From the IMG/VR virus record IMGVR_UViG_3300027733_000053: a DNA stretch of 20,000 nucleotides; one strand, given 5' to 3'. The position numbers and the translations under genes are program-made. The number at the start of each line of letters is the position of its first letter. Position 1 is the first letter of the stretch. Below the pieces are notes generated by a model, which was not told where the DNA came from, made no database searches, and was given only the letters and a program-made list of their open reading frames with translations. This DNA is from an uncultured virus (IMG/VR IMGVR_UViG_3300027733_000053) (lineage: Duplodnaviria; Heunggongvirae; Uroviricota; Caudoviricetes; Crassvirales). Positions 1,698-20,000 of the stretch are shown here, in pieces.

Positions 1698-1730
1698 TTT
1701 GATTTCATATCAATAAATTTATTATCTTTG
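1698..1730 (+). promoter_or_regulatory. Bacteroidota primary-sigma promoter
   Basis: TTTG (1698-1701), 21-nt spacer, TATCTTTG (1723-1730): matches TTTG-N19-21-TAnnTTTG. Confidence 0.8.
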
Positions 1731-1736
1731 GCTTAA

Positions 1737-1858
1737 GTTATAAATACGAGGACACGTATTGTATAGCAAGACATTTACATATCGGGGGAAACCCCTATCT
1801 ATAAATCGAAAGCCATCAACGTTGTGTCCTCAACCGAGATGGTTTTTGTATTTATAGC
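1737..1858 (+). ncRNA. Structured leader/antisense-type regulatory RNA with complementary hairpin loops
   Basis: Hairpin 1737-1767 (loop AGGACA), GGGG-GAAA-CCCC hairpin 1784-1795, long hairpin 1799-1857 (loop TGTCCT); starts just downstream of the promoter. Confidence 0.65.
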
Positions 1859-2995: not shown

Positions 2996-3033
2996 TTATA
3001 ACGTACAACAGATAAATCTAAAACCAAAAAACT

Positions 3034-3324
3034 ATGAAAACAATCACATTCACACACAAAGACAAAAACTTATTTCACTTGTTGAAGGAGACCAACATCA
3101 TTGCTCAAGGACAAGTTCTAAAGGGCGAGGCTCGTATCACAGGATTCTCTAAGGAAGACATCTCGGTAGGAGACACGATGAGTATTATCGGAATAAATTA
3201 TCAGGTAATAAACGTTGTCGAAAGACGAGACCACAAGGGAGTGTTCCTCAATCCAGAAGACAACAAGGACAGCTTCTTCGAGGTACAAACAAAGTTCGAA
3301 AGAGTTGTAGAAACAAAGAAATAA
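3034..3324 (+). CDS. Hypothetical protein
   Basis: 96-aa ORF with the same start context as the 2177 gene. Confidence 0.7.
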   Translation: MKTITFTHKDKNLFHLLKETNIIAQGQVLKGEARITGFSKEDISVGDTMSIIGINYQVINVVERRDHKGVFLNPEDNKDSFFEVQTKFERVVETKK

Positions 3325-3325
3325 A

Positions 3326-3357
3326 TTTGCATAATTGAACAATAAGAATTACTTTTA
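3326..3357 (+). promoter_or_regulatory. Probable Bacteroidota primary-sigma promoter for the SSB-like gene
   Basis: TTTG 3326-3329, 20-nt spacer, TACTTTTA 3350-3357 (1 mismatch to TAnnTTTG). Confidence 0.5.
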
Positions 3358-3389
3358 CAAATATTATTAACCAATAAAACCATAAAAAA

Positions 3390-4201: not shown

Positions 4202-4232
4202 ATTAGCGGGGAGAAATCTCCGCTAATTTTTT
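4202..4232 (+). terminator. Rho-independent terminator
   Basis: ATTAGCGGGGA-GAAA-TCTCCGCTAAT stem-loop followed by a T run. Confidence 0.85.
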
Positions 4233-4242
4233 ACTTCTCACT

Positions 4243-4353
4243 ATGAAAAAGAAACCTACAAAACAGGAGCGGTTAGAACTCGCTAGAAAAATAATTGCTC
4301 AAGGAGAAAAGAAAGACCTTAAATCGTTAAACCAAAAAAACAAATCAAAATAA
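4243..4353 (+). CDS. Small basic protein (36 aa), not in ORF track
   Basis: MKKKPTKQERLELARKIIAQGEKKDLKSLNQKNKSK; TAATG coupling to the next gene. Confidence 0.55.
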   Translation: MKKKPTKQERLELARKIIAQGEKKDLKSLNQKNKSK

Positions 4354-4799
4354 TGGTTCTAAAACACTTTGGGTTAATTACCAACGGTCAGCGTCACTAC
4401 TACAATGATAAGCTACATAAGGCTTGTCTATCGGACTTAGAAGGCAAAGAGTTTGAGGAGACGATTAAGCTAAAGTTTAAGCGTGTGTCCTGCAATGCCT
4501 TTGGATACTATTACGGCTGTGTTATTGATACGGCTCTCAAGGCTGAGATGTTCGGAGGATGGGACAAGGATGAGATGGACGACTTCTTCTCCGACATGTT
4601 TCTTACATCCTACAAGACGCTCCGCATCAATCACCCAGGATCAGAGAAGGAGGAGCATTATACCATCAAGAAAGTGAGAAGCAAAGGAAACGGTTTCACA
4701 TCAAAGGAGATGGTTGAATTTGTTGACAAGGTGATAATATGGTTGGCACAGAATGACATCGTTGTTCCCCCTTCAGAAAACTATTCAGAAGAAAATTAA
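4353..4799 (+). CDS. NinB/DUF1367-like recombination protein
   Basis: NAFGYYYGCVI and TSKEMVEFVDKVIIWLA..DIV.P motifs. Confidence 0.6.
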   Translation: MVLKHFGLITNGQRHYYNDKLHKACLSDLEGKEFEETIKLKFKRVSCNAFGYYYGCVIDTALKAEMFGGWDKDEMDDFFSDMFLTSYKTLRINHPGSEKEEHYTIKKVRSKGNGFTSKEMVEFVDKVIIWLAQNDIVVPPSENYSEEN

Positions 4800-4867: not shown

Positions 4868-5065
4868 ATGAGCCAGAAACAACATTTCGACACAATAAAA
4901 TGCGAGGATGACCTTAGGGCATATTTCGTAAGACAACAACAGAAAGTTCAGGTTGTCTATCCATTCGTTCTTATGACAGAGTCAGAGGCAGTAAGAAAGG
5001 CTTACGACAAAATGATAAACGCTGTCCCTGCAAAGGAGATGCTTAACGTAAAGATAAAAAAATGA
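4868..5065 (+). CDS. Hypothetical protein (possible small DNA-binding protein)
   Basis: 65 aa; ATGA overlap with the next gene. Confidence 0.65.
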   Translation: MSQKQHFDTIKCEDDLRAYFVRQQQKVQVVYPFVLMTESEAVRKAYDKMINAVPAKEMLNVKIKK

Positions 5066-5289
5066 CAGACCTAGAAATATATTTAGAGGACTATCGTGAT
5101 GCTAAGATAACAGCCTCTGTTGAGCAGTTGATACAACACCTTCGTTGGATATATAAATCTGAGGGAGCAATCGCTACAGAAGAATATATTCAAGAGTTAG
5201 AGGGACTTGGATTAAACCATGAGACAGCTAAGGCTATTTTAATTGCTGCAGCGAATCCCGATCAACCATATAAAATCACGAGGATATGA
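5062..5289 (+). CDS. Hypothetical protein
   Basis: 75 aa; ATGA overlaps at both ends. Confidence 0.7.
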   Translation: MTDLEIYLEDYRDAKITASVEQLIQHLRWIYKSEGAIATEEYIQELEGLGLNHETAKAILIAAANPDQPYKITRI

Positions 5290-5843
5290 CAGAGGATGAC
5301 TTACGCAAGATGGGTATGGTTAAGGATGCTAACGGATACTATCGTAAAGAAAAGACTGTCCCTCAGCCGAGAGAGAAGACTCCTGTTAAAGAGGTAACTA
5401 AAAACGTTTACTTTAACAACATGGATATTCAAGATGTTTATGCTCAGTGTGAGAAGGACGGAACAATATTCATCAAGGGGAATGTGCCTTCGCTAAAGAA
5501 CTCTAAGCAGATATTTAAGAACAGCAAGACAGGAAAAAGTTTTATCACATCGTCAGCCCTTTGCAAGCAGTACGTTAAGGATACAGACATTCACTTCAGA
5601 GTGTTCAAGCCGAAGTTCTTGGAGATGATTAAGGGCAAGGACAAGCCATACAGAATACAAATGTTTTTCGTGAGAGATAAGCACAAAGCTTTCGATTATA
5701 TAAATATAAGTCAAATAATATTTGACCTTATGCAAACTCACGGATGGCTTGAGGATGATGACAACAGAAATGTAATACCTAACTTCGATTGTGGGTACGG
5801 ATATGACCCAAAAATGGCGGGAGTAATAATTAAAATTTTGTAA
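5286..5843 (+). CDS. rusA: RusA-like Holliday junction resolvase with N-terminal extension
   Basis: GNVPSLKNSK, FDYIN..Q...DL....W.EDDDN acidic motif, terminal GVIIKI strand. Confidence 0.75.
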   Translation: MTEDDLRKMGMVKDANGYYRKEKTVPQPREKTPVKEVTKNVYFNNMDIQDVYAQCEKDGTIFIKGNVPSLKNSKQIFKNSKTGKSFITSSALCKQYVKDTDIHFRVFKPKFLEMIKGKDKPYRIQMFFVRDKHKAFDYINISQIIFDLMQTHGWLEDDDNRNVIPNFDCGYGYDPKMAGVIIKIL

Positions 5844-5845
5844 CT

Positions 5846-5953
5846 ATGAAAAAATTATTCATCTTTCTTTTTCTCGTTGTAGTGTCAGGATTCATAGCAG
5901 TTCAGGTAATAGAGGAACAAGAATATCAAAAACAAATAATATGCAAGAAATAG
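5846..5953 (+). CDS. Small membrane peptide (35 aa), not in ORF track
   Basis: MKKLFIFLFLVVVSGFIAVQVIEEQEYQKQIICKK fills the gap between rusA and the KTSC gene. Confidence 0.55.
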   Translation: MKKLFIFLFLVVVSGFIAVQVIEEQEYQKQIICKK

Positions 5954-6162
5954 AAATGCTTCCTGTTGAGTCGAGTATAGTGTCAGAAATTGGATGGAGT
6001 AAGGACACTCTCCGCGTTAAATTCCCTACAGGTAGAGTTTACGATTACCACGGCATCATTGAGTATAAATACGACTTAATTATTAACGCTAAGTCGATAG
6101 GATCAGAATTCAAGAAGCAAACAAAGGGGCATAGCTATACACAAGTAAACAAACAAAACTAA
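5941..6162 (+). CDS. KTSC domain protein
   Basis: V.SS.V..IG......L.V.F..G..Y.Y.G.....Y..I.NA.SIG.EF pattern. Confidence 0.85.
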   Translation: MQEIEMLPVESSIVSEIGWSKDTLRVKFPTGRVYDYHGIIEYKYDLIINAKSIGSEFKKQTKGHSYTQVNKQN

Positions 6163-8013: not shown

Positions 8014-8021
8014 TATATTTG
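8014..8021 (+). promoter_or_regulatory. Bacteroidota -7 promoter element upstream of the RNA cluster
   Basis: TATATTTG followed by CA, immediately before the structured region. Confidence 0.6.
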
Positions 8022-8099: not shown

Positions 8100-8203
8100 A
8101 GTCAGGTGGCGGAATGGTAGACGCTAAAATAACAAGTGGACAGCGTGCCATTGGGGAAGGGCCAAGAAAGTTACGCATGCAGGTTCGATTCCTGTCCTGA
8201 CTA
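8100..8203 (+). tRNA. tRNA-like RNA 1 (Leu-type D arm, no canonical anticodon arm, 104 nt)
   Basis: Acceptor AGTCAGG/CCTGACT, D arm GCG-GAATGGTAGA-CGC, T arm GCAGG-TTCGATT-CCTGT; 53-nt central region with no 5-bp/7-nt anticodon arm. Confidence 0.75.
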
Positions 8204-8219
8204 CAAAAATAGACATTAT

Positions 8220-8305
8220 GGTCAAATGGTGTAAGTGGGAATAAATACCACCTAGGATAACAGCTCTGAGAAAGAGAGATGCAGGTTCGAATCCTGCTTT
8301 GACCA
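8220..8305 (+). tRNA. tRNA-like RNA 2 (no canonical anticodon arm, 86 nt)
   Basis: Acceptor GGTCAAA/TTTGACC, D stem GTGT/ATAC, T arm GCAGG-TTCGAAT-CCTGC; centre has only a CTCT/AGAG hairpin. Confidence 0.7.
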
Positions 8306-12060: not shown

Positions 12061-13302
12061 TTATCTACTTATTTCTTCCCAATCCATTGATGCAAATGTA
12101 GTTTCATTATTTGTTCCTGCTGCTAAAATTACTGTAAACTCATAAGGAGTTCCTGTTAATCCATCTCTTTCTAATTGATTACTAAAAAGTGCTGCTCTTA
12201 ATATATCAACAGATACACTTGTACTTGCTGTAGCTGTAAAATAACCTGATGCTAAAATTCTACCTCCTGTAAAAGATGTTCCTGTTAAATTATATTCTAC
12301 AGAAGAATTTGTTCCTGCACTTACCCATGAACCACCTGTTGTTGTTCCTGCTGTTACTACTTGCCAATTATAATTAGCTGCTGTATTACCTATTATAGAA
12401 ATAGCAGTAGCTACAGCTATAGCATCTAATCTTGTTGATTTAAGTTTTATAGAAACTATAGGATAAAATGTACCTGCTGTTGTTAAAGTTTTAGGAGAAG
12501 TTATTGGTGTACCTACAGCTTGTTGTAATCCACGAAGTTCATATCCTCCTTCAGATAATACAGTAGAACATATTTGTTTTAATGTACTAGTCCCACTTGT
12601 AGCACCTGTGTTTGTTATTTCATATCTTAATGGTAATGAAGCTGTAGTAATATATGTAGATGTAATTAAGTTTGCATGTTGGAATTTATGACAAACATAA
12701 AAGTTACCATCTATAACAAAGCCCATTCTAACTGTTCCTACACCTAACCACTCAAGATCCATAAAAAGAATCTGAGCTTTTGTAAGATCAAGAGTGATGC
12801 CACTAGCACCTGAACCATTCATAGGATCAACATTCCAACTTGCTTGAGTAACAGGTGTATCTACTAATGCTCCTGAAACAGAAGTTCTTTCAACAAAACT
12901 TACTGTACTACCATTCTGTTCTAAATAATAACCATTAGCTGCTCCATAATATCCAACTCTTTGTCTAAGATTTGTTTTAGCAGCATTCATTACAAATGTA
13001 GATAGTACAAGAAGACTTTTACCAGGTTGATATGAAAATATTTTTGTAGTTTCTCTAACAACCTCAGAACCTGAAGCTGCTGTTACAGCTAAATCAACTA
13101 GTCCTTGACTAGAATTAAATGTAGCAGTGCCTCCTGTAGCAGTGGCTGTAGACCATAATCCATTATCTGCAAATCTATGACTAGAGTCAAACAATGTAAA
13201 TGGTGTACTAACTCTCAGTCTTCCAAATGCATCTATGTTTGGAGAGTTTGCATATGAGATAGCTGGGCTTATTATACTATATCCTGAATAATTTTGTGCC
13301 AT
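12061..13302 (-). CDS. Virion structural protein (beta-rich, possible lectin-like tail component)
   Basis: [35 protein letters not shown] motifs recognised from aquatic phage structural proteins. Confidence 0.65.
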
Positions 13303-18259: not shown

Positions 18260-18760
18260 TTATTCTTTTTCAAATAAACGTTTTTCCAATATCAATACAG
18301 ATAATTTATCTTTTTCATCTATCAATGCCACTTGATTTAAGAAGTCAGAGTACTCAGCGATTGAAGCTAATTGTATTGCAAGGTATTTTTGCATAATAGC
18401 AAAAGAACATAGATCAGTTGTAAACATCTCTCTTGCTGTCTTCTCGTAAGCCTCATACAAGGCGTATTCAATTTCATAAGATTGATTGATAACATCCACA
18501 AGACCATCAAACTTCAACACAGGCTTGTCTATGTCAGGCAAGTTTGGTGTCACGTTCCAAGACAATAGATAGTCCTCTAATCCTTTAGCATGGCTTAATT
18601 CATCGGTAGATTCTCCCGCAAAATATTCTGCAGCGAAAACATACCCCATGTTTTGTAAGAAATTACTTGCGCTTCTATAGAAGTAGAATGCGTTGTACTC
18701 ATCCTGAAGTCTAGGTAAAATAAGGTCTACCGCTGACTTCTCTAATTTGTTTGGTGTCAT
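18260..18760 (-). CDS. ftnA: Ferritin (non-heme FtnA-like), probable start ATG 18760 (166 aa)
   Basis: E-x6-Y (EYNAFYFY), DELSH (ExxH), second-half E (YEIE) and Q (AIQ) ferroxidase ligands; four-helix-bundle length. Confidence 0.85.
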   Translation of the reverse strand: MTPNKLEKSAVDLILPRLQDEYNAFYFYRSASNFLQNMGYVFAAEYFAGESTDELSHAKGLEDYLLSWNVTPNLPDIDKPVLKFDGLVDVINQSYEIEYALYEAYEKTAREMFTTDLCSFAIMQKYLAIQLASIAEYSDFLNQVALIDEKDKLSVLILEKRLFEKE

Positions 18761-18771
18761 TGTGTTTTGTT

Positions 18772-20000
18772 TTATGGACATTCAGGAGATGATTTCTTGA
18801 AGTCCTTGTTTTCTTCTAGTTGTTTTGTGATTTTGCTGAAATTTTTCTCTATGTGTTCTATTTCAGGATTTTCCTCAAAGATAGCCTTTTTTTGGTTACG
18901 AAGCTCCTTTGTAACATTACCTTTTTTAAATTCTTCTGCAATCTTATCTAAGGCATTGAATTTATCAATCGTTGTTCCTTTCTCTTCTGCACCAGCACGC
19001 TCCTTGAAGTATTCCGTAAGCTCCTGTTGAGATTCTTTCGGTTGTTTCTTGTAGTAGTCAGATGACTCTAGCTCTTGCAATCCTTTTTCAATGGAGTGAG
19101 ACTTCGCAGTAGCTTCAGCATTTCCGAAGATTGTGTTTAAGTCTTCCTCTCCTTTAGAGTATTGGATGTCTCTTCTCTTAGCGTTAGGTTTTATGTTCTC
19201 ATACTTCGGATTAGTCTCAATCTGATTGTATGTTCCTTCCTTTACCCCTTGATATTTTTCTACTGGTAATTTCTCAACAGTTTGCGCTCTAAGAGCTTTT
19301 GTTCCCTTAATGTTCCAATCAGACACAGTAACAGGATATCCTTCCTTAGAAGCCACCTTTGCTACGTAAGCTACCTGATTATTTAAGTCAAACGATTTAT
19401 CTTTCCCGTTCTCTTTTCTGAATAATTTTTCTGCTTCAGGAAGAAGTTTCAACGGATCGCTGTTAAAGTCATACACCTTGTCCTTAGCAACCTTCACAAT
19501 GTAACCGTTACGACTAGGAACATTAGGCTCCAATCTGTCAGGGCGAGTGTAAAGCATTGAACTCTTAACAAGTGGTGACTCTCCTCGGCTTGTAGCTAAG
19601 TGAGTACCTACCTTTTCAGGATTTAACTCCTTGAACTTAGCGTCTGAATAATGGAAGAATAAATAGTTTCCTTTGTCATCCTCTGTCATCTCCTTGCGTT
19701 TGCCTGCTGACTCTACAAGGTCTGTTCCCTTACGAGGCTTTTGAAATAAAGGTTGTCCTTGACTTACACTTGCCTTTAGTTCTGGTGTTATGTCTATGGA
19801 ATTTTGTTGTTCACCATTTATCTCAGTTGTTTTCGGCTCCTGCTTAAACAGACTCTTAGCTACATTACCTACTATACCTAAGCTTCCTTCTTTTGGTGAA
19901 CCATAGAAGCCTTTCATGCCCTTGCCGCCTACTTGTAAATCTACACCTTCATATTTACCACCTTTATTATTAATTATTTTTTCGGCAAGTTCTTTCCCTA
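18772..20000 (-). CDS. C-terminal part of a large polyvalent/virion protein (5'-truncated by the window edge)
   Basis: Frame stays open upstream of 19917 to the edge (GKELAEKI...DLQVGGKGMKGFY); SIDITPELKASV..GQPLFQ linker; possible ART-like domain (FFHYS...LNP). Confidence 0.75.
   Translation of the reverse strand, partial: GKELAEKIINNKGGKYEGVDLQVGGKGMKGFYGSPKEGSLGIVGNVAKSLFKQEPKTTEINGEQQNSIDITPELKASVSQGQPLFQKPRKGTDLVESAGKRKEMTEDDKGNYLFFHYSDAKFKELNPEKVGTHLATSRGESPLVKSSMLYTRPDRLEPNVPSRNGYIVKVAKDKVYDFNSDPLKLLPEAEKLFRKENGKDKSFDLNNQVAYVAKVASKEGYPVTVSDWNIKGTKALRAQTVEKLPVEKYQGVKEGTYNQIETNPKYENIKPNAKRRDIQYSKGEEDLNTIFGNAEATAKSHSIEKGLQELESSDYYKKQPKESQQELTEYFKERAGAEEKGTTIDKFNALDKIAEEFKKGNVTKELRNQKKAIFEENPEIEHIEKNFSKITKQLEENKDFKKSSPECP

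Follow-up and report, generated by a model that had tools for sequence, protein, structure and literature searches.

The subject of this analysis is a 20,000-nt stretch of DNA from an uncultured virus of the Crassvirales (IMG/VR record IMGVR_UViG_3300027733_000053; the whole stretch is called the window below), in which a promoter of the Bacteroidota type is followed by an RNA element of 122 nt (positions 1737-1858, + strand). We found that this RNA has two mutually exclusive folds of similar energy, one containing a terminator-like hairpin and one in which this hairpin is dissolved, and that promoter and RNA together lie on a gene-free cassette of 483 bp that some strains carry and others lack. 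Our preferred reading, which we hold tentatively, is that the unit may be a terminator/antiterminator leader nucleated by kissing hairpin loops (a kinetic attenuator), of which a terminated RNA of ~110 nt would be a by-product. An attenuator working via loop-loop pairing seems the best reading because a promoter precedes the structure, the loops of two hairpins are complementary and the competing fold removes the terminator-like hairpin.

Two mutually exclusive folds behind a promoter

The window is phage-like and tightly packed with genes. Its longest gene-free gap (1683-2176, 494 nt; the runners-up have 309 and 159 nt) holds the following features:

1698-1730, + strand: Bacteroidota-type promoter, with TTTG at -33 (1698-1701), a 21-nt spacer and TATCTTTG at -7 (1723-1730)
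1737-1767, + strand: hairpin A, AATACG and CGTATT enclosing the loop AGGACA (1749-1754); predicted 5' end of the transcript; pair probability 0.98
1784-1795, + strand: hairpin B, GGGG-GAAA-CCCC with a GNRA tetraloop, which is also the tip of the alternative rod
1799-1857, + strand: hairpin C, terminator-like, with the apical stem GTTG/CAAC (1821-1824/1831-1834) and the loop TGTCCT (1825-1830)
1748-1831 (inner span), + strand: alternative, putative read-through fold, with an inner helix (1748-1756/1823-1831) and an outer helix (1737-1747/1848-1858)

A preliminary description, made from the sequence alone, had proposed the promoter, the three hairpins, the run of five U residues (U5), the complementary loops and both long-range pairings, and a check of the sequence found each of them in its place.

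In Bacteroides and Flavobacterium, the promoter consensus is given as TTTG at -33 and TAnnTTTG at -7 (PMC2483708, PMC7641319). The composite of the two elements occurs four times in the window compared to 1.28 times expected, and the sole copy that lies in a gap and faces the genes is the one at 1698-1730. The -7 box by itself was found six times in the gaps read in gene direction (1975 nt; 1.53 expected from its window-wide frequency, a value not corrected for the A/T richness of gaps). Between the end of the -7 box and the start of hairpin A lie 6-7 nt, and transcription is predicted to start near 1736-1738. No second consensus promoter was found between 1859 and 2176, and none on the minus strand of the cassette. 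As 1859-2176 has no second consensus promoter, expression of the downstream genes in cassette-bearing phages needs read-through.

Other copies of promoter-like sequence were also noted. A full antisense match to the -33/-7 consensus lies inside the first downstream gene, P0001 (2676-2708, - strand). The 17-nt promoter core AAATTTATTATCTTTGG (1714-1730) occurs exactly in 60 IMG/VR stretches (L059-L118) with 42 distinct downstream sequences, which means that the promoter sequence recurs before unrelated DNA. In one metagenome run (X4), a separate contig matches 1712-1746 with four differences.

Folded with ViennaRNA, the segment 1731-1870 gave exactly hairpins A, B and C as its best structure (-40.9 kcal/mol, z -4.17; none of 200 shuffled sequences did equally well). 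Below its apex, hairpin C continues through a 3x3 internal loop into the stem GCCATC/GATGG (1812-1817/1838-1843), with U5 at 1843-1847, and this U tract pairs with the A-rich 5' foot of the hairpin. With -10.3 kcal/mol for its upper part, hairpin C is weaker than the canonical terminator of the window at 4202-4227 (-15.6 kcal/mol), as would be expected of a leaky, regulated stop. The loops of hairpins A (AGGACA) and C (TGTCCT) are exact complements, and the pairing can extend to GAGGACAC (1748-1755) with GTGTCCTC (1824-1831); further out, GTTATAAATAC (1737-1747) can pair with GTATTTATAGC (1848-1858), with one G-U pair.

These long-range pairings make up the second fold, a rod in which the two helices are nested and neither hairpin A nor the terminator stem persists. 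The mutually exclusive alternative that the preliminary description had claimed is therefore borne out: in the full-length RNA the rod reaches -36.6 kcal/mol, 4.3 kcal/mol above the three-hairpin fold, and so close an alternative is rare among shuffled sequences. We permuted base pairs among the paired positions of the three-hairpin fold and letters among its unpaired positions, and scored the best structure that avoids hairpins A and C. Only one of 400 such sequences had an alternative within 4.3 kcal/mol (mean gap 19.7, standard deviation 3.9). In the reverse test, in which the rod was preserved, none of 400 sequences had an alternative that matched the native three-hairpin fold in energy. 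On the + strand the three-hairpin fold uses three G-U pairs, which are A-C mismatches on the other strand; there, the mirror of this fold lies 11.8 kcal/mol higher than the rod, and 17% of the shuffled sequences do as well. The structure and its two-state property are not due to chance, and the two-state property is specific to the + (promoter) strand.

We also scanned ~610 kb of phage contigs for a terminator-like hairpin preceded by another hairpin and scored the complementarity of the two loops. Among 3198 hairpin pairs (1661 from the window and five related or cultured phage records, 1537 from four further viral records), the pair described here was alone in having eight complementary loop letters (it is listed twice, for two positions of the T tract). 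A control with parallel pairing gave one 8-mer, which consisted of A and T only. Three borderline matches were set aside because they resemble coding sequence, and a search for the same architecture in the other gaps of the window gave no further copy.

We also folded nascent transcripts of increasing length. With the 3' end at 1831, 1835 or 1840, the inner read-through helix gives the best predicted fold; it melts hairpin A and occupies the 5' half of the terminator. Not until the 3' arm and the U tract have emerged does the terminator fold overtake it, with an advantage of 1.5 kcal/mol at 1843 that grows to 4.0 kcal/mol at 1847. The loop-loop contact itself was calculated at -7.0 kcal/mol for 6 bp and at -12.6 kcal/mol for 8 bp.

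A hairpin with a U tract thus lies 3' of a promoter and 5' of genes on the same strand, and it competes with an exclusive fold of similar energy, as in an attenuator. We infer that the host-type promoter would start an RNA whose first 122 nt could adopt either fold. In the first, 5' hairpin A, the GNRA hairpin B and hairpin C with its U5 would form, transcription would stop at 1843-1847 and an RNA of ~110 nt would be released. Hairpin A should form first and would have to be opened, with the exposed complementary loops as the point of nucleation: the loop of A (AGGACA) would pair with the just-made sequence of the C loop (UGUCCU), and the contact would spread into a helix of 9 bp (1748-1756/1823-1831), by which hairpin A would be opened and the terminator would lose its 5' half. 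Transcription would then continue into the block of genes that includes the Gp157-like and RusA-like ones. Read-through would result if the loop contact spreads in time; otherwise the ~110-nt RNA would be released. Such an attenuator would set the share of transcription, from the promoter of the cassette and probably also from the upstream operon, that reaches the downstream genes. The balance might be tipped by temperature or the speed of transcription, by a protein, or in trans by the released RNA through the same loops.

An optional cassette at a hypervariable junction

The promoter and the RNA are part of an accessory cassette that lies between two genes of the + strand:

660-1682, + strand: upstream gene, primase/helicase-like, 340 aa (PHROG 5482, E 1.3e-42; DNA primase/helicase PHROGs 18375 and 239); its protein ends in DPF before the stop
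1674-1684, + strand: left direct repeat CCATTTTAAAA, 11 bp, consisting of the last two codons and the stop codon of the helicase-like gene plus 2 nt
1685-2167, + strand: accessory cassette, 483 bp, free of open reading frames (ORFs); because of an 11-nt register ambiguity it lies equally well at 1674-2156
1859-2156, + strand: rest of the cassette, with no ORF that has relatives and no significant fold
2157-2167, + strand: right direct repeat CCATTTTAAAA, which includes TAAAA (2163-2167), 9 nt before the ATG of P0001
2177-2995, + strand: first downstream gene, P0001, 272 aa, of no known family; 17 relatives, none of them named

We compared contigs of four metagenome runs with the window over 1300-2600. 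In run X3, a contig of 603 nt (depth 4.98, five other letters) joins 1673 to 2157 and skips exactly 483 nt; at this joint, 11 letters fit either side. The same run also has an insert-bearing contig (1683-1911) with zero differences. Exact copies of CCATTTTAAAA occur only twice in the window, flanking the insert, and a single copy is present in the empty site. In run X4, a contig that crosses both junctions (1641-2201) has 4 differences in 561 nt, those listed being outside 1737-1858, whereas 21 of 369 and 37 of 362 letters differ in the flanking genes; the depth of this contig was 351 compared to 566 and 523 for the flanks. In run X12, 1670-1855 is identical, although similarity falls below 80% over the 158 nt upstream. 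Further contigs carry other sequence at the same junction, and in one of these (X2) the joint again lies shortly before the right repeat, at 2153. The cassette is thus ~99-100% identical in strains whose flanking genes are 6-10% different.

The insert is also absent from three related loci (L001, L004 and L045). In the first two, which encode a helicase-like protein 73% identical to that of the window, the ATG of the P0001 homologue follows the helicase stop after 25 nt. Two other relatives have different cargo at the same junction: L005 carries an 82-aa membrane protein and a PAPS-reductase-like gene (5006-6149; PHROG 424, E 4.3e-46), and L006 another small gene (3003-3360). The junction after the primase/helicase-like gene is therefore a hypervariable hot spot for accessory cargo, and the insert is an accessory cassette, polymorphic for its presence and near-unchanged across diverged strains. 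A recent spread appears to fit this pattern better than long-term selection. Strong conservation of a non-coding stretch does not equal selection; here it mostly stems from recent spread. The preliminary description had seen in the unit a built-in governor of the downstream genes, a view that we had to give up because the whole unit lies on a dispensable 483-bp insert, absent from a near-identical variant and from the closest relatives.

As to how the cassette moves, target duplication by an enzyme, exchange by recombination within ~40 nt of the ends and repeated deletion between the 11-bp repeats are candidates. Its ends have no terminal inverted repeat except for the self-complementary TTTTAAAA inside the direct repeat. 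A MITE or another non-autonomous transposon derived from an insertion sequence would share the flanking direct repeat, but we found neither terminal inverted repeats nor multiple dispersed copies. The palindrome was also compared with attC-like, IS200/IS605-like and IS110-like elements, and these readings were dropped: its position is internal, the ends lack the expected motifs and there is no recombinase. A decayed neighbouring gene or decayed cargo of the relatives was likewise dismissed, since the insert had no similarity to the related loci (blastn, tblastx) or to three helicase-like proteins (blastx).

No second copy of the cassette was found in the window, in IMG/VR, in 401 Bacteroidota genomes or in a phage collection. 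A blastn search of the phage collection with the insert gave no homologue, and three related viral records had none either. In IMG/VR, an exact 18-mer of hairpin A retrieved no homologue, an 18-mer from the 3' part of the cassette gave one chance match, and a pattern of loop, gap and loop gave 13 matches, all of which were unrelated on alignment; the same pattern had no match in the genome collection. The 401 Bacteroidota genomes gave nine short chance matches, none over the hairpins, and five genomes carrying relatives of a ferritin-like gene (see below) gave promoter-like, A/T-rich matches only.

The 3' part of the cassette (1859-2156) had no significant fold on either strand (z -1.59 to +1.00). 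It contains no ATG-started ORF with relatives, a 44-aa frame had no protein relatives, and there is no resemblance to helicase genes. A remnant of a homing endonuclease or other gene was considered and dropped: when nine stop-to-stop pieces were compared with Pfam, seven had no match and two, on the minus strand, had weak sub-threshold ones. This part may be spacer, or it may have been left behind by a cargo gene that was lost.

Beyond the cassette, the TAAAA of the right repeat fits the ribosome-binding consensus of Flavobacterium, which is TAAAA located 2-12 nt before the start codon (PMC2483708). One relative of P0001 (48% identity) has a match to Sipho_Gp157 that is below threshold (E 2.3e-5), and at the locus of a P0001 relative (L044) no such leader lies upstream. 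The preliminary description had called the downstream genes recombination genes. This is weakly backed by a RusA-like gene at 5286-5843 (E 3.5e-12) and a NinB-like gene at 4353-4799 (E 0.0039); the first downstream gene belongs to no known family. The region of the U tract (1839-1854) is complementary to 2163-2178, the A-rich start of P0001 (TAAAA and part of the ATG), at 81% over 16 nt; this may be an A/T-rich chance match or a second control layer in read-through transcripts. Two gaps further downstream have unlisted short ORFs that start with ATGAAAAA (4244-4352 and 5847-5940, + strand), the former ORF of ~36 aa coming after the canonical terminator at 4202-4227 and the latter being hydrophobic and ~30 aa long.

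The host of the phage is likely of the Flavobacteriia type because the upstream helicase-like protein mostly matched phages of Flavobacterium and Riemerella (tblastn; 79 and 15, respectively, of 98 cultured-phage records, i.e. 94/98). A 1137-aa protein of the window had no match in the search for the host. Proteins of Puniceispirillum phage HMO-2011 and many cyanomyoviruses share 60-66% identity with a virion structural protein at 12061-13302 (- strand, PHROG 1645). This protein points to phages unrelated to the Flavobacterium phages indicated by the replication gene, and its gene looks widely exchanged. A ferritin-like gene (18260-18781, - strand; Pfam PF00210, E 6e-12) lies amid structural genes and has 42 metagenome relatives. 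The contigs of metagenome-assembled genomes that carry these relatives have mixed taxonomy labels, and we dropped them as a guide to the host because they are probably mis-binned. ARAGORN called no tRNA or tmRNA in the window. Two Rfam tRNA matches exceed the gathering score (8100-8203 and 8220-8305, + strand; 35.9 and 35.1 bits); they have unusual lengths (104 and 86 nt) with long insertions from the D arm to the T arm, and ARAGORN misses both. A -7 box, TATATTTG, is located upstream of them at 8014-8021.

Weighing the attenuator against other explanations

Several observations, given in this and the next three paragraphs, weigh against an attenuator. The stretch was found in 24 runs from 13 studies, all of them freshwater, lake, sediment or plain metagenome, and none of the 24 was an RNA run. 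The same design was found neither in the ~610 kb of other phage contigs nor at the 60 loci with the promoter core. No search gave a diverged homologue of the element, hence there is no covariation, and no change within 1737-1858 is listed among the four metagenome variants.

From the terminator to the next start codon there are 318 nt, which are unstructured and long for a leader. A gap of 318 nt suits a separate gene better, and the unit might be a stand-alone, trans-acting small RNA (an 'RNA moron', 1737-1847, ~110 nt) whose loops bind targets or pair two copies head-to-tail, with read-through being incidental. The promoter, the 5' hairpin and the hairpin with the U tract do bound a compact unit, and it sits on a self-contained insert at a junction where relatives carry the PAPS-reductase-like gene and the 82-aa membrane protein. 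However, we found no convincing target: GAGGACAC with at most one mismatch occurs 12 times in the window compared to 8.2 times expected, and an apparent match between 1818-1828 and 2204-2214 is broken by a G2212A variant in three of four runs. Moreover, a small RNA has no need for a tuned second fold that destroys its own terminator, and an efficient terminator without a second promoter behind it would cut off the downstream genes. We regard a small RNA as unlikely, though it deserves serious attention.

The minus strand clearly prefers the rod, which at -45.7 kcal/mol (z -5.93) is more stable than the structure of the + strand and leaves room for a palindrome acting at the DNA level. In this case, the imperfect palindrome of 122 bp would be a site for protein binding, for recombination or for initiation on single strands beside the primase/helicase-like gene, or else it would form the working end of the mobile cassette, and the promoter match and the RNA folds would be by-products. 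The site lies directly 3' of a replication gene, and the cassette with its 11-bp flanking repeat behaves as mobile or exchangeable, both of which agree with a DNA signal. Against it stand the three G-U pairs required for the three-hairpin fold (A-C mismatches on the other strand), the restriction of the two-state property to the + strand, and the limits of the structure, with a consensus -7 box 6-7 nt before its start and a U tract at its end. In addition, the palindrome is located 50-170 nt inside the cassette, not at its end, and there are no terminal inverted repeats. The relatives and the empty-site variant do without the palindrome, so it is not an essential origin. We assign a DNA signal a small probability.

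The element is dispensable, as an empty-site variant co-occurs and relatives lack the insert, and any regulation by it is therefore optional. The near-identity of the cassette in diverged strains reflects recent spread and is not proof of selection on the RNA. This raises the question whether the unit has a present function at all, or is the leftover promoter and leader of a cassette that has lost its cargo gene and spreads by recombination at the hypervariable junction. All of the cassette, functional or not, is conserved to the same degree (at most 4 differences in 561 nt), a sign of recency rather than of selection, and in the 298 nt past hairpin C we found neither an ORF that has relatives nor a fold or a family match. 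On the other hand, the promoter is intact, as is the two-state fold with its fine balance, and a live promoter and terminator between two co-transcribed genes must alter their expression. The cassette is also not obviously costly, at ~350 of ~520-570 depth units in run X4. A functionless leftover appears improbable to us.

The preliminary description had proposed either an attenuator or an immunity RNA of the kind known as P4 CI, P1 c4 and N15 CA. Such an RNA would be cut out of the leader and would then, in trans, force early termination on the same leader in a superinfecting phage. In the CI system (seqB with seqA/seqC), as in c4, an RNA is complementary to another site of the same transcript, and the element likewise has segments complementary to another site of its own transcript, with loops that could set specificity. 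Its membership in these families found no support. A search of 1600-2300 with cmscan at E up to 10 gave five weak matches, none of them to C4- or CI-type families and none below E = 2.2, and a scan of the whole window at the gathering threshold returned the two tRNA matches only. Among the 20 ORFs of the 20 kb scanned against PHROG and Pfam there are no integrase, repressor, antirepressor or partition genes, that is, no genes of immunity or lysogeny, and the element is optional within one phage population. We consider an immunity RNA very improbable. The other half of the proposal, a loop-loop attenuator, is supported in silico.

A bolder version of the attenuator reading would be that the unit is a protein-free cassette of promoter and RNA switch that spreads site-specifically among phage genomes that have diverged, settling at the final 11 bases of a replication gene and rewiring transcription in the next operon. 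It might then represent a wide, uncatalogued class of leaders in Bacteroidota phages, in which the loop of one hairpin pairs with the loop of the terminator and the loop letters serve as a private address; the 110-nt RNA could act in trans on copies with the same address. We think that this extension is unlikely.

Comparison with known systems

Should the attenuator reading be true, two complementary hairpin loops would suffice for a self-contained terminator/antiterminator switch without a ligand pocket, and a regulatory unit could be passed on as an accessory cassette without genes, at a hypervariable junction. Natural variants with and without the cassette occur side by side in lakes and provide a ready-made experiment on the role of the switch.

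In the guanidine-IV riboswitch (mepA motif), a kissing loop of two hairpins hinders the completion of the terminator stem and leads to read-through (PMC11611296). The element resembles it in having two hairpins with pairable loops, the second of which extends into an intrinsic terminator, a likeness that here is an in silico one. It differs in that its loops are full Watson-Crick complements (6-8 nt) and in that the contact, growing into a long helix, can melt the first hairpin. The downstream genes differ as well: they are phage genes (one of no known family, a RusA-like and a NinB-like one), not guanidine exporters or detoxification genes, and the element is located on a mobile phage cassette. 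Rfam includes a guanidine-IV family, and the RNA of the window has no Rfam match and no sign of a ligand pocket. Membership in this family is ruled out by the lack of an Rfam match and of exporter genes.

P4 CI, P1/P7 c4 and N15 CA are promoter-proximal phage RNAs with segments that are complementary within the same transcript and are linked to premature termination. The two complementarities of the element (1748-1755/1824-1831 and 1737-1747/1848-1858) are of this type. In contrast to these RNAs, the element has no Rfam match, is not surrounded by an immunity locus in the window and is optional in the population.

Small promoter/terminator units, called promoter-early stem-loop (PeSL) cassettes, are described at hyperplastic sites of T4-type phages, where insertions, deletions and swaps occur between close relatives (PMC4122927, PMC2839356). 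The junction in the window is similar, as empty, filled and other-cargo forms exist between close relatives. However, one genome contains many PeSL copies, at which homologous exchange takes place, whereas the element is single in 20 kb and has no copy in five related or cultured phage records. Furthermore, the repeat that flanks the cassette is the 11-bp end of a gene and not a promoter or stem-loop, and the RNA has a tuned two-state fold.

In the classical attenuators (trp, pyr, T-box and pT181-type), one segment has two alternative partners, and the choice between them is made while the terminator is being transcribed. The proposed switch follows the same logic of choice, but it has no leader peptide, no tRNA- or protein-binding motif and no separate antisense gene. 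Instead, it would be nucleated by two complementary hairpin loops within one transcript. Gene regulation in Bacteroidota phages is little known, and we know of no RNA switch of theirs with a named family. What is new here is that the unit rides on an optional, recently spread, gene-free cassette of 483 bp.

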